9,917 nucleotides of DNA, from UHGV virus genome UHGV-0207821; one strand, given 5' to 3'. A program made the translations under genes and the position numbers. This document shows, piece by piece, positions 1 through 9,538 of the stretch (position 1 is its first letter; each line of letters opens with the position of its first letter). The notes below the pieces were generated by a model that was given only the letters and a program-made list of their open reading frames with translations, was not told the origin of the DNA and searched no databases. The stretch is from a virus.

Positions 1-73
1 TGTGCCCCCATCGCTCTGATAGCCTGGTGTCGTCAGGTCCTTCCTGGAATTATGGCCCGTTACGGGGCGGCGG

Positions 74-616
74 TTACTCGCCTTTGTTCTGTAGCAACTT
101 CTCAGGCGCGCTTCCGGTAGTTTCCATCAGGTAATCAGCCAGTATCTGTGGCAGGTTTTCGTCAAGTCTTGCACATGCGTTACATGCTTTGGCTATTTCC
201 CTTTTTAGTTCATCCAGCATATACGGCCTTATATCGGGAAAGCGCCTTTGCATTGTGAGCGGGAGGCTGTCCATGATTGATGAAATCTGACTCGCTAGTT
301 TTGAAATCGCGTAGATGCAAAACTTTGTATCAATCACCTCGCCGCGTTCGCGCTCGTTTTTAAGTTCCTGCGCTTCCGCCTGGGCCGTCATTAATCTGAT
401 TCTTACGCGTAAAAGTTCATCATCATCAATCTCGCCTTTGTCGTTTGTAAGCTGGTTAATTGCATTGTTAACCCTATTGTCTATCACGCTGGCAACATCA
501 TAAAACGCCTCACGGCCTTTACGTTCAACGGGAGTCACTCCCCACTTGTCGAATGCTGTAGCACTTACCCGGCAGCTTTGCGCCATGGTTTTTTTGTTCA
601 TCAGGTGCGATTTCAT
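74..616 (-). CDS. Terminase small subunit, lambda gpNu1-like (possible packaging-redirecting TerS homolog)
   Basis: Translation aligns along its full length with lambda Nu1 as I recall it (e.g. RLMTAQAEAQELKNERERGEVIDTKFC...MDSLPLTMQRRFPDI vs lambda RLTRAQADAQELKNARDSAEVVETAFC...LDGLPLSVQRRFPEL). Start chosen at ATG 616 because of the upstream GGGGA Shine-Dalgarno; ATG 601 and GTG 628 are alternatives. Sits directly downstream of the cos site, as in lambda. Confidence 0.85.
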   Translation of the reverse strand: MKSHLMNKKTMAQSCRVSATAFDKWGVTPVERKGREAFYDVASVIDNRVNNAINQLTNDKGEIDDDELLRVRIRLMTAQAEAQELKNERERGEVIDTKFCIYAISKLASQISSIMDSLPLTMQRRFPDIRPYMLDELKREIAKACNACARLDENLPQILADYLMETTGSAPEKLLQNKGE

Positions 617-817
617 CAATATCCCCACTTAGTTAAGGTTTCAGGTTGGTGTGTTGGTGTTATCTTTCCCTTTTTATTCATAGAGATAGAGCGAAAAACA
701 AAACCACCACCACCAACCCGAAAAGGCTCATAAATAGCGAAAATCCGCAAGGTCGCCGCCCCGTAGCCTGCCGGATCGCCGGAAAGGACCCGCCAGCCAG
801 AACGGGCCCTAATTTCA
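617..817 (-). other. Lambda-type cos site: cosN 12-mer at 750-761 plus cosB-like repeats
   Basis: Plus-strand AGGTCGCCGCCC at 750-761 is the exact reverse complement of the lambda cohesive end GGGCGGCGACCT. The minus-strand sequence just after it (TGCGGATTTTCGCTATTTATG) closely matches lambda CGCGGGTTTTCGCTATTTATG (R3 region, from memory). AGCGAAAA repeats at 690-697 and 736-743; inverted CACCAAC-rich blocks at 644-660 and 704-719 flank an AT-rich core. Confidence 0.75.
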
Positions 818-1201
818 TCAACCAATCAGCTTATAGCGACCATCCCGTGCATTGCGACGTACACGCTCAATCTTGAGGCATAGCGCCGCATCTGGCTTTT
901 TGGGGACAGGTACGCGGCAATATTCAGAAGCTCGAGGAATATTGTTTATCCAGTCGATCACTTCACTTAAATACCAGGCTTTACGCCCTTCCGTAACCTG
1001 TACGCGTTCGGGGAACTCTCCACGAGCCTCAAGGTTTAGCAATGTGCGACGGCTAAGGGTAGTAAGTTCCATCACCTGATTCATATCAACAAGGCGTTCA
1101 CTTAAACGCATTTTGTCAGCAATAGCCTTTAATTCCTCTACTGCTGGATCCGGATACATCATTTCGGCAATTGGCTTAAGGTCATTGTAATGATTCTGCA
1201 T
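818..1201 (-). CDS. AlpA/MerR-like helix-turn-helix DNA-binding protein, function unknown
   Basis: Central motif MELTTLSRRTLLNLEARGEFPERVQVTEGRKAWYLSEVIDWINN has the AlpA/excisionase-type HTH pattern. ATG at 1201 is preceded by AGGGGGA. Lies between the gpD-like gene and cos. Confidence 0.7.
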   Translation of the reverse strand: MQNHYNDLKPIAEMMYPDPAVEELKAIADKMRLSERLVDMNQVMELTTLSRRTLLNLEARGEFPERVQVTEGRKAWYLSEVIDWINNIPRASEYCRVPVPKKPDAALCLKIERVRRNARDGRYKLIG

Positions 1202-1212
1202 TGTATCCCCCT

Positions 1213-1554
1213 TTACACACGAGCCAGCGGCTGAACAGAAATACCTGAGCCAACAAACGCGGCAACCTTTGCCGACAGTTCTCTTACAGACTCAGGCCAG
1301 TTCAGAGCATCAACATTTAAAACACCTGTCTTATAAACCTGTGCCTGTGTTTTTTTCGCTGTGTCGATTTGTACAGCGGAAACATAAACCGCTTTGCCTG
1401 CGCTCGTTCCATCCCATACCACTAGCGCACCAGTTGCATCTTCCTGCATCAGTGGCGTAAACGCAGGTATTACCCCTTTATTGGCTGAAAATATCCCCAG
1501 CGTAGTAACCAGTGCTTCAGTGCCAGACATGAGTTCAGTGTAATGAGTAGCCAT
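1213..1554 (-). CDS. Head decoration protein, lambda gpD-like
   Basis: 113 aa; conserved blocks shared with lambda gpD from memory (TPLM, VVWDGT, YKTG, WPE, AAFVGSGISV vs TPLM, VAWDGT, YKSG, WPE, TAFAGTAISIV). SD AGGGGGAG precedes ATG 1554. Confidence 0.85.
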   Translation of the reverse strand: MATHYTELMSGTEALVTTLGIFSANKGVIPAFTPLMQEDATGALVVWDGTSAGKAVYVSAVQIDTAKKTQAQVYKTGVLNVDALNWPESVRELSAKVAAFVGSGISVQPLARV

Positions 1555-1563
1555 TGCTCCCCC

Positions 1564-2610
1564 TTAGCCAATGCGAACGGTAACAAAACGATTGATGCGG
1601 GCCGGTATTGGCTGTGGTGCAGAGTGCGTTTGTACGTACTCAATAGCCGGATCACCAGGCACAATATAGTTTTTCGGTGCAAGTTCGGCTTTAGTCAGCC
1701 CCATTCGGGTTAGCTCCGGATCCTGAATACCGCCATAGGCGACAATCCCCTGAAGAGCCGTATTGCCAAGCACCATCAAATCAGGATCAAGGAAATGTTT
1801 TTCAGTTCCGTCCTCGTCGGTATAACGTCCGCTGTAAACAACAATCGCAACATCGCCCATATACCCTTTAAAACTCACCGAATCACCAAGGTCTTTAAGG
1901 GCCGTTTCCAGTTCGGAATTAGAACCACGGCGGGTATCCAGAGCCTCTTTTATCGCTCTGAATGAACGGTATTTCTTCCATACATTACCGCCCATAATGA
2001 TGATATTAGTGACGCCCTCACTAAATTCTGCGTAGCTCTCAATATCATCATTTGGATCAAAAGTTTCTTTATCCTTACCTGACCACTCAGCACCGCCAGA
2101 CTGCGTGATAATATTTTGTGGTTTTATATTCCAGTCCAGTTCATAACGTTCAATACCATCGCCCTCAATGATATTTTTCCCCGTTGTGATTGCCTGAACA
2201 GCAAGCCATTCAATACGTGCACGTATAGCTTTAGCCTGATTTACAATCGCCTGTTTAACTTTAATATTACGCGCCCCAAAAGCATTGTATTGTTCAGGTG
2301 ATACACCAGCAGGGCGCACAGCTAACTTATTTGGATCAATGCTGCTTTTCGGTTTCATATAGCCAGGGCGAATTATTTTTGATTCGTATCCCTCATCTCG
2401 TGAAACTTTACTGCCCACCATAGGAGAGCAAAACGCCGCGATCGGGATATTTGGATCGTCGATCGTATCAAGAATAATGTCTCTCGATTCAAAGATTACC
2501 GAGCGAGTGAAAAACAAACTGGTAAACAACGCATTTAATTTTTTTTGCACATCTTCAGCATTAGCCACCTGCACAAGCTGTGTAGGCGAATATAAATCAA
2601 CCATACTCAT
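1564..2610 (-). CDS. Major capsid protein, lambda gpE-like (HK97 fold)
   Basis: Long collinear similarity to lambda gpE as recalled (MSMVDLYSPTQL vs MSMYTTAQL; DTRRGSNSELETALKDLG and GDVAIVVYSG essentially identical). Start is the ATG at 2610 (MSMV...) preceded by AAAGAGGA, not the ORF-track start at 2691. Confidence 0.9.
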   Translation of the reverse strand: MSMVDLYSPTQLVQVANAEDVQKKLNALFTSLFFTRSVIFESRDIILDTIDDPNIPIAAFCSPMVGSKVSRDEGYESKIIRPGYMKPKSSIDPNKLAVRPAGVSPEQYNAFGARNIKVKQAIVNQAKAIRARIEWLAVQAITTGKNIIEGDGIERYELDWNIKPQNIITQSGGAEWSGKDKETFDPNDDIESYAEFSEGVTNIIIMGGNVWKKYRSFRAIKEALDTRRGSNSELETALKDLGDSVSFKGYMGDVAIVVYSGRYTDEDGTEKHFLDPDLMVLGNTALQGIVAYGGIQDPELTRMGLTKAELAPKNYIVPGDPAIEYVQTHSAPQPIPARINRFVTVRIG

Positions 2611-3503: not shown

Positions 3504-3694
3504 CCCCACTTTTTCGCCTCACTTTTTAAGCTCCCCACATGATTTCCAACCTTGTTTTTTTGTGATTCTAATATGTTGTTTTTCAATGTGTTTTTTATTC
3601 CTCACTTTTGAGCCTATATACAGATTGAAAAGTGAGGGGCGCGGTTGCTTTTTGTTCAGTTCCTGCTATCCCCTCACTTTTGCGCCTCACTTTT
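3504..3694. repeat. Iteron array with AT-rich core, candidate replication origin
   Basis: CCTCACTTTT at 3517-3526, 3600-3609, 3672-3681, 3685-3694; variant CCCCACTTTT at 3504-3513; inverted copy AAAAGTGAGG at 3628-3637 forming a palindrome with the 3600 copy. T-rich stretch 3551-3599. Immediately 3' of the replication helicase gene. Confidence 0.55.
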
Positions 3695-5109
3695 TACAGT
3701 GGGCGCACATCATCACCGTCAATAGCGATAACGCCGTCTCTTTCCAGCTTGTACAGCCAGCGCCGGAAGTTTTTCATCTCATACCCCAGCTTTTTCATAT
3801 CATCGCGCAACAACGGGATAGTGCATTTATCGCCGCGCTGTGTGCGTGACCGGATACAGCCCCATAGTGCGGCGTGATTCTCCGTCTTGTTTCCGGCCTC
3901 CTCGATGCGCTCCAGTTCAACGGGTGGGCGCGGCTTATCCACAACCACCAGCGACGTGATTAACTCCTTGTCAGCGTCGGTAAAAAGCTCCACCACACGT
4001 AAATCATATGCAGCCTCTTTCAGTTCCTCCGCGTCCTTCATTTTGGTGCAGGAGATAACCAGGGCCTCACTGTCCGCGCCTTCGCGGCGGATCCGGTACT
4101 CAGCGTCCAGAGATGCACGAAATGCACTGGAACCACGCGCCCCTTTTGTTTCATCCTTGCCGGAATGGTGAACCACCAGCACCGTGGCCCCTGTGCGTCG
4201 TTTCAGTTCGTCACATCCACGGATAAACGCCCCCATATCCCGCGCGTCATTTTCATCATTACCGCCAAAGCAACGCGCCAGCGTATCCAGAATAATCATG
4301 CGTACCGGTTTACCCGTTTCCCGTTCAACCTGGCGGGATGCGATAACCATTTCATCAACATCAAACTGGGCTGCAGGAAAAATCGGGCGGTTTACCAGGT
4401 ACAGATTTTTCACCCGTTCATCATTAACGATTTCCCATGCCTTGATACGGCGGGGGACACCAATGCCACCTTCACCGACAACATACATCACCGAACCATG
4501 CGCCACCCTGCGACCTCCCCAGTGGCGACCCGTGGCAACATGACACGCCCAGGAACACGCGAGGAACGATTTATAGGAACCGCTCGCGCCGTATGTGCTG
4601 CACAATGAATTAGCCGGAATCACGCCCTTAACGACATAATCAAGCTGTGTGTCGTACCCTGCAGATCCAATGCTCATTGGTAGCGTGGTTTTTCGCTGGC
4701 TGTATTGCTCGTCAGTAAGTATTTCCCCGCGCTCTGCCTGTTCGCGGATCCGTTGCAGGTAGTCGTGCCAGTTCTCCAGCTTCTGACTGTGCATTCCCTC
4801 AGGGTAATAATTCGCATCCCGTACACCTGCCGCCGCCAGCTTTTGCCCGATGGCATTAATATTTGACGGCTTGATGTGGCCTGCCTTGTACAGTCGGACA
4901 CAATAGCGACCATCGTCGATAATTTTCAGGCCTGCCAGTTCGTCAAGCTGGCTGTCTCCCAGCCATACAGGCGGAACATTGTCGCCAGCAAGTCGCCCGT
5001 CCTGCTCCTGCCATTGTTTCGCGTGCGCCCAGGCATCACTACCCGCAAAAATAATGACTTCGGTCATTTTGTCGTAAGGCTGTTTTTTTAAGTTCGGTGC
5101 GCTTTTCAT
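3694..5109 (-). CDS. Replication initiation helicase, RepA/DnaB-like RecA-fold ATPase with C-terminal winged-helix domain
   Basis: 471 aa. Walker A-like YGASGSYKS, Walker B-like RMIILDT, then VLVVHHSGKD, typical of RepA-like (AAA_25) helicases. C-terminal LGYEMKNFRRWLYKLERDGVIAIDGDD looks winged-helix. SD AGGGG before ATG 5109; ATGA overlap with the upstream ORF. Confidence 0.8.
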   Translation of the reverse strand: MKSAPNLKKQPYDKMTEVIIFAGSDAWAHAKQWQEQDGRLAGDNVPPVWLGDSQLDELAGLKIIDDGRYCVRLYKAGHIKPSNINAIGQKLAAAGVRDANYYPEGMHSQKLENWHDYLQRIREQAERGEILTDEQYSQRKTTLPMSIGSAGYDTQLDYVVKGVIPANSLCSTYGASGSYKSFLACSWACHVATGRHWGGRRVAHGSVMYVVGEGGIGVPRRIKAWEIVNDERVKNLYLVNRPIFPAAQFDVDEMVIASRQVERETGKPVRMIILDTLARCFGGNDENDARDMGAFIRGCDELKRRTGATVLVVHHSGKDETKGARGSSAFRASLDAEYRIRREGADSEALVISCTKMKDAEELKEAAYDLRVVELFTDADKELITSLVVVDKPRPPVELERIEEAGNKTENHAALWGCIRSRTQRGDKCTIPLLRDDMKKLGYEMKNFRRWLYKLERDGVIAIDGDDVRPL

Positions 5110-5870: not shown

Positions 5871-6103
5871 AACCCCCCCCCATTTTCACAATCAGCAATC
5901 AGGATGGCTTTGGCCTCATTCAGCGCCATATCCGCACTAAGTTGCATAACCGCCAGCGAATGAGGAACGAAAGCCCCGGCATATTCTGTTTCACTGGTAG
6001 CGTGCTTATGCGCCCTGTCCGCGATAACAGAAATATCAATCGGCGCATCAATCAGTGTTTTGATTGCTTCGGCGGCTGCGTCCGGACGGGTGTTATTGCA
6101 CAT
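5843..6103 (-). CDS. Hypothetical protein, upstream half of a possible poly-G frameshift pair
   Basis: 86-aa ORF; the G9 tract encodes the GGG in ...ADCENGGGLCVMIVLIP near its C-terminus. A 10-G tract would fuse it in frame to the 5637-5870 ORF. Confidence 0.45.
   Translation of the reverse strand: MCNNTRPDAAAEAIKTLIDAPIDISVIADRAHKHATSETEYAGAFVPHSLAVMQLSADMALNEAKAILIADCENGGGLCVMIVLIP
5873..5881 (-). repeat. Homopolymeric G9 tract (C9 on plus strand) at the junction of two ORFs
   Basis: Nine consecutive C on the plus strand at 5873-5881, inside one ORF and directly upstream of the next ORF's ATG. Confidence 0.9.
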
Positions 6104-6461
6104 GGTGCACCTCCTGGCGAATACGGGCGGCGAATACCATCACGCAGCCAGCCGGGGATTGCTGACGTGCTTCCTGTTCGCTGGTGGCCTCGATGTGAAT
6201 CACGCGCGGTTGTGCCGTGCTCAGGGCGATAAAACGCCAGATAAAATTGTTCTCGCATTTCTGAATAAACAGCGTGTTTTCTTCGCGCCCTTTCCATGTT
6301 GCCGAGATATAGCCCATGTCATTGAGCATCTCGCAGGCATCCACCAGCGTATCAGCGGCTACGTGTACAGTGTTTTTACCGTCAGCCATGCAATCACGGT
6401 GCACCGCCAGGAAGGTGTATATAAATTTAGGGTGAGTTTGGGTATGCTGTGTTCCAGCCAT
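6093..6461 (-). CDS. Hypothetical protein, first gene of the leftward operon
   Basis: 122 aa from ATG 6461 (MAGTQHTQTHPKF...), SD GAGGT about 8 nt upstream. Normal amino-acid composition, unlike the junk-like translation further upstream in the same frame. Confidence 0.5.
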   Translation of the reverse strand: MAGTQHTQTHPKFIYTFLAVHRDCMADGKNTVHVAADTLVDACEMLNDMGYISATWKGREENTLFIQKCENNFIWRFIALSTAQPRVIHIEATSEQEARQQSPAGCVMVFAARIRQEVHHVQ

Positions 6462-6669
6462 AATCGTTACCTCATTTAACGGTTTGGTTAGAAGCCCGGT
6501 TAGTGTTCGCGCACTGCCGGGTTTCGTCGTTTTTATGAATCGCTCATTGTGAGATACATAGCGACCCCCATGTGAGATACACATTATATTGTGGTGATAT
6601 ACATTGCAAGTGTTTTTATATCTCACTTTTGTGTATAGTGATATACACATAACAAATTGGTGATTAACT
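6462..6669. promoter_or_regulatory. Divergent regulatory region with operator-like repeats
   Basis: Four same-orientation copies of GTGA(G/T)ATACA at 6549-6558, 6572-6581, 6593-6602, 6639-6648; inverted partial TATCTCAC at 6619-6626; palindrome GTGTATA-GTGA-TATACAC at 6631-6650 just upstream of the RHH gene. Lies between divergent gene starts at 6461 and 6670. Confidence 0.55.
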
Positions 6670-6972
6670 ATGTCTGTATACAAAAATGCAAAATCGCAAA
6701 TGACAACGATCAGGGTTCCCCACGATGTTATGGAGGGCATGGAATCCGTAAAACTGGACGGCGAAAGCAACGCCGGATTCATAGTAACCGCCATGCGCGG
6801 TGAGATCGCTCGCCGGCAGGCAGAAGGAAGAGGAGAAAATCCCTTGGTTTCTTCGCTCGATGCACTGGCGCAGGTGGAAAAAATCGGTGTCAAAGCAGCC
6901 GAGGAGATCGGGCAACTCGTCACCGTCGCGCGTGAAGAACTCCAGCGGCGCAAGGCCAAAGAACCAGAGTAA
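6670..6972 (+). CDS. Ribbon-helix-helix (CopG/Arc-like) transcriptional regulator, candidate element repressor
   Basis: N-terminal MTTIRVPHDVMEGMESVKLDGESNAGFIVTAMRGEIARRQ fits the RHH strand-helix-G-x-S-x-N-helix pattern. SD GGTGA 6 nt before ATG 6670. Charged, helical composition. Confidence 0.6.
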   Translation: MSVYKNAKSQMTTIRVPHDVMEGMESVKLDGESNAGFIVTAMRGEIARRQAEGRGENPLVSSLDALAQVEKIGVKAAEEIGQLVTVAREELQRRKAKEPE

Positions 6973-7029
6973 TCACCATCAGCGCCGTGGTGTAAGGTAT
7001 TACGGCGCATTGCTATGCAGGACAACACA

Positions 7030-7203
7030 ATGACCGATAAAGAATTGACCAAAACATTATCACCGGCACGGAAAAGACGGCGCAGAAAGATAGAGCATGA
7101 ATCAGAAAGATTCGCGCCATGTGCTTTTGCTCTTGAGAAATTCCTTAAAGAGCACAGGAAAAAGCTCTCGTTGCAAACCTTGGAACGAACCAAATCTGAC
7201 TGA
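7030..7203 (+). CDS. Small basic protein, hypothetical
   Basis: 57 aa from ATG 7030 (SD AGGA 7 nt upstream); very basic (RKRRRRK). Co-oriented with the RHH gene and followed by a terminator. ATG 7015 is an alternative start. Confidence 0.4.
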   Translation: MTDKELTKTLSPARKRRRRKIEHESERFAPCAFALEKFLKEHRKKLSLQTLERTKSD

Positions 7204-7676
7204 TCACATTGCCCACCAGCCGCAAATGTGGCATTGTTGGTGATGCTCATGCGTTGGGGATAACGTGTAGCTTGTGTCGAGGGGCCACCGTAGCGGGTGG
7301 CCTTTGTTTTGCCTGTTATCCGGCAATTGTGGCGCTTCGCCACACGGTTGATATAATCCCACTGCTCAGATTCATTTTTTGCGCAGTAGGTTAATTGTTC
7401 ACAAAGGCGCTCCGGCAACGGGGCGCTTTTTGTTTTTATTAGTTTGTAGAAACCTGACTCAGAGATAATGCTCATATTCTGATTGCCGTCAGGGGGGTAA
7501 GTTAAATTTACTCCCTTTTCATCAAGCATCTGCAACGCTCTGGCGTTAATAATATTGGTTTCACTCCCGCCAATAAGGCCGGAAATAACCGGAATAATTT
7601 CAGCGAAATTTTGCAGATTCTGGTTTTCAGGCCGAACGAAGCCCCGCCCCTGTACAGGCGTATATCCAGTATTCAT
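7204..7676 (-). CDS. Possible Bro-N/antirepressor-like protein; 3' end undefined because the frame has no stop until 6093
   Basis: N-terminal ~125 aa from ATG 7676 look protein-like; NMSIISESGFYKLIKTKSAP resembles the Bro-N/antirepressor signature (weak, from memory). Beyond about 7300 the translation turns Cys/Ser-rich and runs antisense through the RHH operon and the operator region. The 7204 end is arbitrary. Confidence 0.3.
7283..7310 (+). terminator. Rho-independent terminator of the plus-strand regulator operon
   Basis: GGCCACC (7283-7289), loop GTAGCG, GGTGGCC (7296-7302), then TTTGTTTT (7303-7310). Confidence 0.55.
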
Positions 7677-7728: not shown

Positions 7729-7917
7729 TTAGTGAACTGCCTCGCGGCTGTCCTTCCATGCCAGAACTTCGGATAAAGACCAGCCAACGGAACGACCACC
7801 GAGTTTACGCCGTGATGGGAATTGTCCAGTCTTCTCCAGGCGATACCGACATGAGCGGCTCAGGCCTGTAAGTTGCTGACATTCTTTTTCACGTATAAAG
7901 CGATCTGTGCTTAACAC
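7729..7917 (-). CDS. alpA: AlpA-family (excisionase/Vis-like) transcriptional regulator
   Basis: LSTDRFIREKECQQLTGLSRSCRYRLEKTGQFPSRRKLGGRSVGWSLSEVLAWKD is a classic AlpA HTH. Start proposed at GTG 7917, preceded by AAAGGGGGA. The ORF-track ATG at 8025 would add a low-complexity T/N/P-rich extension. Confidence 0.7.
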   Translation of the reverse strand: MLSTDRFIREKECQQLTGLSRSCRYRLEKTGQFPSRRKLGGRSVGWSLSEVLAWKDSREAVH

Positions 7918-8285
7918 AATTCCCCCTTTGTTGTTTCTTAAAGAGTCATTGGGTGGATTATTGGGTTGGGTTGTGTCGGATTGTGTCAGGGTGTTTATGG
8001 AATGGCAAACACTGGTGGCGGTCATTTTACAGAAGTGGGGGTAGTGAGAATAAAAATCCTTTTAATTCATTATGATGTAAAGGCATAAAATTCTGTTTTT
8101 ACGCCTTTTTTACATGTTTTTAAGAGTGATTCGCCAATGTACAAAAAGCCAGTAAAACGACTGAAAATCAACTTTTTAGGGTGTCAGTCAGATGATAATC
8201 AAGTTTGTTCCAGATTGTTCGCCGTTGTTCGTCGTGGTGTCTCGTTGTTTCACGTTGTGTCCGTTCTAAAAAATCGCAAAAAAAA

Positions 8286-9533
8286 TTATATTTCTCTGGC
8301 TATTGGCAGTGTGGTTACGTTTTCGTGAGTGCCTGCCAGTATCTCTAACCGCTCTGTCCACATGTCCAGCGCATTACGTTTCGCATCGAGATAACGGGAG
8401 TGGTTATAGACTCGCTGCATCCCTGGCATCTGGTGAGCGGTGAGTTGTTCGACAATATGCGGATCCACGCCTAAATCGTTCAGCATCGTGGTAAACGTGC
8501 GCCGTATATCGTGTAGTGACCAGTGCGGATGGTTTAATTTTTTGTGCATGAATCTGCCGTATTGCGACACACTGGCTTCCTGTTTCAGTTCCCCGAGTAA
8601 TAGCCCTGTGTGTCTGTTCTGCTCCACCAGCTGCGTGACGAACGGTAAAATGCTTTCCGGTATTGGCCTGAATATGGCGACCTTCGTTTTGCTGTGCTCT
8701 TTCGGTACTGTCCAGAGCATTTCCTTAAAATCCCACTCCCTGATCTCCGATAATCTCAGTTCTCCGGTTCGGCAGCCGAACACAATCAGGAGGCGGATTA
8801 GTGCGCTGTAGTAGGGCGGGAATATTTTTTTATCCAGCGCCTGTAATAATTCGCCAAGTTCTTTGTTGCTCAGCACGCGTTCGCTTATGCCTGGTTTTTT
8901 GCCAACGTCCACCACGTTAAGATCATCCAGAACGTTACTGACTGCGTAGCGACGTTTACGGCAGAACTTAAGCGCCTGTTTACACGCCTGCATCATGTGA
9001 CCAGACGTTACAGGGGATTTTTTGCGTATCCGGTCAAAACAGGCCAGCCAGTGACGTAACTCGCATTTATCCAGTGGCATATTGCCAATATGCTGTATGA
9101 CGTGATTATTCAGGCGGCTTTTCAGGCATACGTAATCGACACGGTTTTCCTTTACGTGCATTTCCAGCCAGTAGCTGATCGCATCACCCACCGTTACCGG
9201 CTTTAGTGCTTCCTGTATGGAGTAATTAAGCTCATGGCGTGGATTTTTTCCTTCTGCCAGCCATGCGCGACACTGTGCCGCTTTTTCCCTGGCTGCTTTC
9301 AGGCTCAGATCAGGATAATTTCCCAGCTTCAGGCGTTCCGGTGATACCTGGCGTCCAGCTCCTGCTCTGTAGGTGAAATACCAGGTTAACAAGCCGCTGG
9401 TGGAATGCCTGACGCTCAGGTTTCCACCGTCATTAAGAAATGTGGTTTTTGGGGCTGGTGTGCCGTTGATTTTTCTTAGCTGTGTATCGCTCAGTTTGTT
9501 AAGTGCTCTGCTCATAATTTTGAATCCGGTCAT
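8286..9533 (-). CDS. int: Tyrosine site-specific integrase, P4-family type
   Basis: N-terminal LSDTQLRKI...DGGNLSVRHS...LLTWYFTYR typical of P4-family integrases; C-terminal catalytic region with HDIRRTF and VYNHSRY (tyrosine nucleophile). ATG at 9533; the ORF track starts at GTG 9536, and ATG 9515 is also possible. Confidence 0.9.
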   Translation of the reverse strand: MTGFKIMSRALNKLSDTQLRKINGTPAPKTTFLNDGGNLSVRHSTSGLLTWYFTYRAGAGRQVSPERLKLGNYPDLSLKAAREKAAQCRAWLAEGKNPRHELNYSIQEALKPVTVGDAISYWLEMHVKENRVDYVCLKSRLNNHVIQHIGNMPLDKCELRHWLACFDRIRKKSPVTSGHMMQACKQALKFCRKRRYAVSNVLDDLNVVDVGKKPGISERVLSNKELGELLQALDKKIFPPYYSALIRLLIVFGCRTGELRLSEIREWDFKEMLWTVPKEHSKTKVAIFRPIPESILPFVTQLVEQNRHTGLLLGELKQEASVSQYGRFMHKKLNHPHWSLHDIRRTFTTMLNDLGVDPHIVEQLTAHQMPGMQRVYNHSRYLDAKRNALDMWTERLEILAGTHENVTTLPIAREI

Positions 9534-9538
9534 CACAA

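Follow-up and report, generated by a model that had tools for sequence, protein, structure and literature searches.

The 9,917-nucleotide virus genome UHGV-0207821 (hereafter the window, meaning the whole stretch of DNA that was analyzed) carries near its left end a lambda-type cohesive-end site (cos) and, beside it, a gene for a small terminase (TerS) of the Nu1 family. Judged by gene content and order, the window is a nearly complete Gram-negative phage-inducible chromosomal island (PICI) of Escherichia coli, about 10 kb long and belonging to the EcCICFT073 / EcCIIHE3034 family. An earlier interpretation made from the letters alone (the sequence-only reading) had taken cos and terS together for a module with which a satellite hijacks packaging, and the comparisons below support this as the reading that we infer. 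The features on which the argument turns are the following.

35..72, plus strand: remnant of an inverted second cos (cos2), with a cosQ-like AGGTCCT (35-41; G-to-A change) and TTACG plus the first 8 nt of cosN (GGGCGGCG, 65-72), aligned to the intact cos2 of EcCIIHE3034, O157:H7 and EcCICFT073
74..616, minus strand: terS, Nu1-family small terminase of 180 aa (Pfam PF07471), annotated "terminase small subunit" in relatives
639..723, minus strand: 13-nt inverted repeat, arms 711-723 and 639-651 (TTTCGGGTTGGTG and CACCAACCTGAAA on the minus strand), complementary at 12 of 13 positions
697..712, minus strand: G/T-rich block TGGTGGTGGTTTTGTT, +50 to +65, at the R3 position of lambda and N15, invariant in nine E. 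coli islands
715..749, minus strand: cosN-to-R3 spacer, lambda +13 to +47, including TTTTCGCTATTTATGA, common to lambda, phi80, N15 and the Rpp-type island
750..761, minus strand: cosN, the 12-nt cohesive-end sequence GGGCGGCGACCT, identical to lambda nt 1-12
785..791, minus strand: cosQ, GGGTCCT, packaging-termination element, aligned without gaps to lambda -29 to -23, with spacing to cosN as in lambda

Cos core and cosB of the island

The core of the island cos is that of lambda. Window positions 792..715 (minus strand) correspond to lambda -30 to +47 in an ungapped alignment with 69 of 78 positions identical. Within window 1-1300, only this block, which holds cosQ, cosN and the spacer, matches genomes of the phage collection at the nucleotide level (87 records, 88-90% identity, E-value 1e-20). 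The lambda-identical cosN noticed in the sequence-only reading lies within it, as the only exact copy of GGGCGGCGACCT in the window (761..750, minus strand). By chance, 2 x 9917 nt should contain an exact 12-mer about 0.001 times, and near-matches with up to three mismatches occur at chance level (4 found, 6.9 expected). The flanks of cosN, with their partial symmetry, repeat lambda -5 to +17 apart from two substitutions, and cosQ stands upstream of cosN at the lambda spacing. Nicks are predicted on the minus strand after position 762 and on the plus strand before position 750.

CosN is variable within the island family and among lambdoid phages: all variants share the left half, GGGCG, and differ in the right half. 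The sequence is GGGCGTCAGGCG in two islands, LR1 (L011 669-680) and S1CHI01A (L014), GGGCGGAAGGCG in phage PhiR46_1 (L020 1234-1245), and the N15-type GGGCGGCGTCCG in the ECCRA-119 prophage (L022 2614-2625).

Similarity to lambda ends after +47. From +48 onward, the alignment shows none to the lambda elements R3, I1, R2 and R1, which bears out the diverged cosB of the sequence-only reading. The region is also shorter, as had been estimated: the first cohesive-end base is 145 nt from the terS start codon here, against 190 nt in lambda and 88 nt in N15. We aligned the cos regions of nine E. coli members of the family (about 12% of columns differ; mean column identity 88%). The cosQ region (GGGTCCTT), the spacer, the G/T-rich block TGGTGGTGGTTTTGTT and the distal ACACCAACCTGAA (652..640) are unchanged in all nine.

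The G/T-rich block is the best candidate for the binding site of the island TerS, because it is kept in a distant relative that lacks the distal arm of the inverted repeat. This relative (L017; TerS 56% identical) has GGTGGTGGTGTTGTT at +51 to +65. The block also shares 8 of 13 positions with R3 of phage N15 (GAGGTTGTTGTTT, +48 to +60; position taken from PMC9026076). The inverted repeat has its arms separated by 59 nt, in an R3/R2-like inverted arrangement; the distal arm is invariant in the E. coli relatives, and the proximal arm varies at one to three positions. Of the repeats listed in the sequence-only reading, the inverted blocks are thus real and extend to 13 nt. The direct repeat AGCGAAAA is present twice, as described (690-697 and 736-743), but we rejected it as a meaningful repeat, since the second copy belongs to the lambda-conserved spacer and relatives do not preserve the first.

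The R3-position sequence can also be compared with that of the islands that carry rppA instead of terS. TerS-type islands have TGGTGGTGG at +50 to +58 (window 704-712), and the Rpp-type cos1 of EcCICFT073 has ACCACCACC at +55 to +63 (L005 32605-32613), the latter being the proposed R3-PICI of Murialdo & Feiss (PMC9026076). The two consist of the same triplet repeat on opposite strands, at a nearly equal distance from cosN, which may be a coincidence or an inverted site.

A second, inverted cos follows terS or rppA, and is intact, in EcCICFT073, EcCIIHE3034 and O157:H7. In the window, a deletion of about 185 bp fuses the terS stop codon to the middle of the cosN of cos2, and several other relatives are entirely without cos2. 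Such losses fit the published observation that EcCICFT073 does not need cos2 for its transfer (PMC6092414). Islands of the terS and rppA types are similar as far as about +33 of cos1, and again from about +45 of cos2. From these break points, the unit that differs is cosB together with the gene for the recognition protein, placed between two inverted cos cores.

The island small terminase

The terS gene more likely starts at ATG 616, which is preceded by a GGGGA Shine-Dalgarno sequence and is the start annotated in relatives (180 aa), than at the alternative GTG 628 (184 aa); its stop codon is at 76..74. The protein matches Pfam Phage_Nu1 (PF07471) with an E-value of 9e-24 (84.3 bits, cutoff 30). 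Along its entire length it shares 37% identity with lambda Nu1, and each of the three regions of Nu1 can be aligned. Its closest phage counterpart in the collection is N15 gp1 (47.6% identity), and none exceeds 48% overall. The private Nu1 homolog that the sequence-only reading had proposed therefore exists, as a distinct lineage under selection.

The layout comprises an N-terminal N15-like domain, probably a winged helix-turn-helix (HTH), a central helical region, a C-terminal segment and a 12-aa tail. The DNA-binding domain is identical to the N-terminus of N15 gp1 at 27 of 45 positions (60%), including the same recognition helix, AFDKWGV, and both proteins are without the 11-residue insert of lambda Nu1. 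Outside this domain, identity to the lambda, phi80 and N15 TerS is 35-45%. In the central self-association region, residues R72, R74, L75, A78, A80, A82, E84, L85 and N87 are invariant with phage TerS. The C-terminal segment, homologous to the gpA/TerL-binding part of lambda Nu1, reaches the lambda Nu1 end (residues up to 180) with about 40% identity, and the best match for the C-terminal 76 residues in the phage collection is about 54%.

The gene is under purifying selection, strongest on the DNA-binding domain. It is intact in all nine copies examined, and the ratio of nonsynonymous to synonymous substitution rates (dN/dS) within the family is 0.16 for the whole gene (dS about 0.5), 0.035 for the DNA-binding domain and 0.25 for the C-terminal third. 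The opposite view, with the strongest divergence in the DNA-binding domain, had been considered because the Pfam alignment began at residue 37 and a sequence search against the solved chains of the lambda Nu1 DNA-binding domain in PDB gave no match; it was rejected, as the multiple alignment has this domain N15-like and the most constrained. In an AlphaFold model, the DNA-binding part has a beta-a1-a2-hairpin-a3 pattern at a predicted local distance difference test score (pLDDT) of 67-78. Foldseek searches with the model returned only weak MerR-type winged-HTH matches, which were not significant (E > 0.1).

The C-terminal third of terS (window 74-256, codons about 121-180) is mosaic among islands (compared with L009, L012 and L008), with at least three to four allele types. 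The CFSAN064035 gene, for instance, is nearly the same as that of the window to about residue 117 and continues as an N1420-type allele. The pattern in these alignments suggests recombination within the gene.

Proposed packaging by a helper terminase and its alternatives

The island has no gene for a large terminase (TerL). Because the window stops 73 nt past the terS stop codon, this can be demonstrated only through a near-identical island, that of TW10590 (98.7% identical, inserted between smrA and abgR). Only a 93-aa gene separates terS from the chromosomal smrA in that island, and its full annotation lists neither TerL nor portal, protease, tail or lysis genes; the same holds for four relatives at four different chromosomal sites, among them EcCIIHE3034, O157:H7 and ATCC 25922. 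The sequence-only reading had seen no large terminase and had named one downstream of terS as the observation that would contradict it; such a gene was looked for in these flanks and not found. The satellite nature that it had assumed agrees with the PICI gene set and with these absences, and a terS without an adjacent, overlapping large terminase gene is itself marked as a satellite copy.

EcCICFT073, the model Gram-negative PICI, is syntenic with the window island gene for gene. Where the window has terS, EcCICFT073 has the gene for the 144-aa RppA, beside a homologous cos1 whose cosQ, cosN and spacer resemble those of the window to about +33, followed by a private cosB and the gene for a winged-helix recognition protein, and the cassette is flanked by the inverted second cos. 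RppA has been shown experimentally to redirect lambda/phi80 packaging (PMC6739421). The two islands follow the same logic, in that the part of cos recognized by TerL is kept and the part recognized by TerS is changed.

The simplest mechanism, to which we assign a probability of about 0.65, has the island TerS bind an R3-like site of its own and bring in the TerL of the helper. Upon induction by a lambdoid helper phage, the island would replicate as a concatemer. It has kept the half of cos that a lambda-type gpA/TerL uses, namely cosN with its staggered 12-nt cut, the spacer, and cosQ for termination, and the half that a small terminase reads (R3-I1-R2-R1 in lambda) is replaced by what would be a recognition sequence of its own. 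This would consist of the G/T-rich R3-position block, joined in the E. coli islands by an inverted partner some 70 bp distant. The island TerS would bind there through its N15-type, probably winged-helix domain and recruit the helper TerL, so that island DNA might be cut and packaged preferentially to, or independently of, the helper TerS. As the island encodes neither TerL nor portal, its DNA would be packaged into particles built by the helper. Such a scheme would be the cos-phage counterpart of the TerS strategy of Staphylococcus aureus pathogenicity islands (SaPIs), and an alternative to the Rpp adaptor that EcCICFT073 has at the same locus.

Several observations weigh against this mechanism. 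No integration host factor (IHF) consensus with at most one mismatch was found in the island cosB or between the arms of the inverted repeat. The AlphaFold model of the whole TerS has low confidence (pLDDT 57), too low to be of use. Over the C-terminal 28 aligned residues, the island protein shares only 11 of 27-28 positions with the lambda, phi80 and N15 TerS and 9 of 28 with the 21-type. At about this level of identity, the TerS and TerL of lambda and 21 are reported not to be interchangeable. Mimicry of a helper TerS C-terminus found no support either: the best phage match is 54%, and for a distant relative that lies inside a prophage, the helper used as a proxy has a TerS of phi80 type, no more than 39% identical to that of the island, whose C-terminus does not imitate it. 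That helper was chosen by 99.4% identity of a capsid gene fragment, and its proxy status weakens the comparison. Finally, mitomycin C induction of the resident prophages led to no transfer of EcCIIHE3034 or EcCI18098, two islands that encode TerS (PMC6092414), and experimental transfer has not been reported for any TerS-type E. coli PICI.

Part of the same evidence can be read differently. If the island TerS acted as an Rpp-like adaptor, it would co-assemble with the helper TerS and poison its recognition of the helper cosB, and the C-terminus of the helper subunit would form the bridge to TerL. Heterodimers of Rpp and TerS are an established precedent (PMC6739421), and the position of terS, that of rppA in EcCICFT073 beside a homologous cos, agrees with such a role. 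So do the well-conserved central self-association region, a C-terminus close to that of no phage TerS and, weakly in view of its proxy status, the low identity to the proxy helper TerS. However, Rpp proteins are only 139-154 aa long, with a winged HTH and a C-terminal coiled-coil dimerizer, and lack the C-terminal 30-40 residues and with them a TerL-binding tail (PMC9026076), whereas the island TerS is a full-length Nu1 homolog that retains the whole C-terminal region under selection. It has no detectable similarity to RppA, and the idea that it is simply a long Rpp was rejected because BLASTP gave no alignment between the two. We therefore regard an adaptor as unlikely, though the least improbable of the alternatives. 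A self-sufficient terminase, with TerL encoded just outside the window or at another place in the element, could be imagined from the short distance between the terS stop and the end of the window, given that lambda gene A overlaps the end of Nu1. Against this stand the flanks of the TW10590 island and the four relatives, from which a TerL beyond the edge was rejected, and the identity of window 1-73, which is the cos2 remnant and not the start of a gene-A-like open reading frame (ORF); we give this possibility almost no weight.

A third alternative is that the island is a decaying lambdoid prophage, as in the annotation of O-island 51 / CP-933C, and that cos and the Nu1 homolog are relics with no role in packaging. 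Related islands have indeed been annotated as cryptic prophages (PMC6092414), and the failure of two TerS-type islands to transfer (PMC6092414) and the broken second cos in the window would fit. Yet terS is intact in all copies at substantial synonymous divergence, non-coding blocks in cosB are conserved, and the same compact architecture recurs at no fewer than four integration sites and in 762 genomes. Nor is the gene order lambda-like: the capsid and decoration genes (1564-2604 and 1213-1554) lie upstream of cos, on its cosQ side, opposite to lambda, as the sequence-only reading had pointed out. The sibling island EcCICFT073 is, moreover, experimentally mobile (PMC6092414). The selection on terS and the conservation make a relic very improbable.

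The proposed recruitment of a helper TerL by the island TerS has a parallel outside the family. SaPI TerS_S is likewise a satellite small terminase homolog that pairs with the helper large terminase and reads the satellite's site (PMC6739421), roles that the island TerS would share. SaPIs differ in their headful (pac) packaging, in an unrelated TerS family and in a separate interference protein, Ppi, whereas the window module is cos-type and of the Nu1 family. Phage N15 shares with the island the N15-type DNA-binding domain, the recognition helix and a G/T-rich R3 (a single R3 site). It is a complete phage with its own TerL, a lambda-like TerS C-terminus, which the island lacks, and a cosN that differs at 2 of 12 positions. 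The Rpp mechanism needs the helper TerS (PMC6739421; PMC9026076), which the one proposed here may not.

As a tentative generalization, which we hold to be somewhat doubtful in its full form, TerS-type islands may represent a second solution to cos piracy, in which a full satellite TerS with an N15-like domain and a private R3 replaces the helper TerS outright. In this generalization, cosB and terS/rppA would be swappable between the inverted cos cores, and TerS C-terminal alleles and cosN variants would set which helper TerLs can be exploited.

PICIs carry virulence regulators and defense genes between enterobacteria, and among E. coli cos-type PICIs only the Rpp mechanism of packaging has been elucidated. 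The TerS-type module is about eight times more frequent than the rppA-type in complete E. coli genomes and is present in O157:H7. Its N15-like TerS domain and conserved G/T-rich R3-position block form a concrete, testable recognition pair, and the islands offer a natural system for asking how much of the Nu1 C-terminus is needed to engage a lambda-type TerL. The general picture of satellite function is unchanged; a known category is filled in, with close relatives already named in the literature.

Relatives and the remaining genes

The cos-terS module is widespread. A nucleotide search (at least 80% coverage) found it in 762 of 5426 complete E. coli genomes, about one in seven, and the rppA module in 97 of the 5426, a count that distant Rpp alleles would escape. 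The terS-bearing architecture also occurs in EcCIIHE3034 (TerS 86% identical), in O157:H7 (at the EcCICFT073 attachment site) and in ATCC 25922. A plasmid-borne example (CP061267.1, pSTEC1024_3, 171 kb; L021) was rejected: the record also carries roxA, phoPQ, mnmA and further chromosomal genes, and represents a piece of chromosome submitted under a plasmid label.

E. coli PICIs with precisely this architecture, TerS included, had been mapped by 2018, when Fillol-Salom et al. noted that the islands of IHE3034 and 18098 (EcCIIHE3034 and EcCI18098) "encode TerS" (PMC6092414), and the sequence-only reading had overrated the novelty of the module. Our literature search, which could miss papers beyond its scope, found no later functional study of TerS-type E. 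coli PICIs, and no helper phage for them is reported in the literature searched.

EcCIIHE3034 / EcCI18098, and the island of the same type at the O-island 51 / CP-933C site of O157:H7, share with the window the order integrase, capsid, decoration, cos, 180-aa terS and 93-aa last gene. Their TerS is 85-86% identical to that of the window, and cos aligns throughout, with cosQ, spacer and R3-position block invariant. They differ in integration site (cspD-clpS and roxA-phoQ, versus smrA-abgR for the TW10590 twin of the window), in the replication gene (a primase in EcCIIHE3034, versus a RepA helicase in the window and O157:H7), in the gene between decoration gene and cos, in an intact rather than truncated cos2, and in the allele of the TerS C-terminal third.

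More distant homologs with 56% TerS identity (L017-L019; Enterobacter/Citrobacter-type sources) belong to islands that share this layout and sit within the major capsid gene of a lambdoid prophage. These helper-embedded PICIs (PMC10111431) have DUF4222, RepA helicase, capsid, decoration, AlpA-like gene, cos and terS in common with the window island. They carry FRG/DUF3892 cargo after terS, and the window island is at a chromosomal site instead.

All genes of the window are on the minus strand, in the order integrase, AlpA, small ORFs with DUF4222, RepA-type helicase, single-stranded DNA-binding protein (SSB), gpE-like, gpD-like, second AlpA-like, cos and terS. The main features beyond the cos-terS module are these.

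818-1201, minus strand: second AlpA-family HTH protein, 127 aa, similar to PDB 8c3t (E-value 2e-10), between the decoration gene and cos
1213-1554, minus strand: gpD-like head decoration protein (Pfam HDPD, 5e-15; TW10590 annotation)
1564-2604, minus strand: gpE-like major capsid protein (Pfam Phage_cap_E, 9e-41; TW10590 annotation)
3694-5109, minus strand: RepA helicase / AAA_25, PICI core marker
7729-8025, minus strand: AlpA regulator, PICI core marker
8286..9536, minus strand: tyrosine integrase (Pfam Phage_integrase and Arm-DNA-bind_3), at the other end of the island

With the integrase at the opposite end from terS, the window represents a nearly complete integrated element. It contains the PICI core set as defined by Fillol-Salom 2018 and SatelliteFinder, that is, an integrase, AlpA, a primase/replicase, a capsid-morphogenesis gene and a small terminase, co-oriented within about 10 kb; the small terminase is one of five core PICI components in SatelliteFinder (PMC10085698). 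Capsid-forming PICIs (cfPICIs) are characterized by their own TerL, portal, protease, head-tail connectors and HNH; the window island has only the capsid, decoration and terS genes. The gpE-like and gpD-like proteins occur without portal, protease or scaffold, and the capsid and decoration genes of EcCICFT073 are dispensable for transfer and interference (PMC6092414).

The slot adjoining cos looks variable. The place of the 127-aa AlpA-like protein is taken by an unrelated 137-aa protein (c1501) in EcCICFT073, EcCIIHE3034 and O157:H7, which one record describes as a head-tail connector.

The window and the TW10590 island align in two pieces (96% coverage), and the window carries some extra sequence. 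A 527-aa ORF (6093-7676, minus strand), whose translation is of low complexity and rich in Ser and Cys, probably does not represent a gene. It has no annotated counterpart in the TW10590 island, where the matching stretch holds just a YlcI/YnfO gene on the opposite strand.

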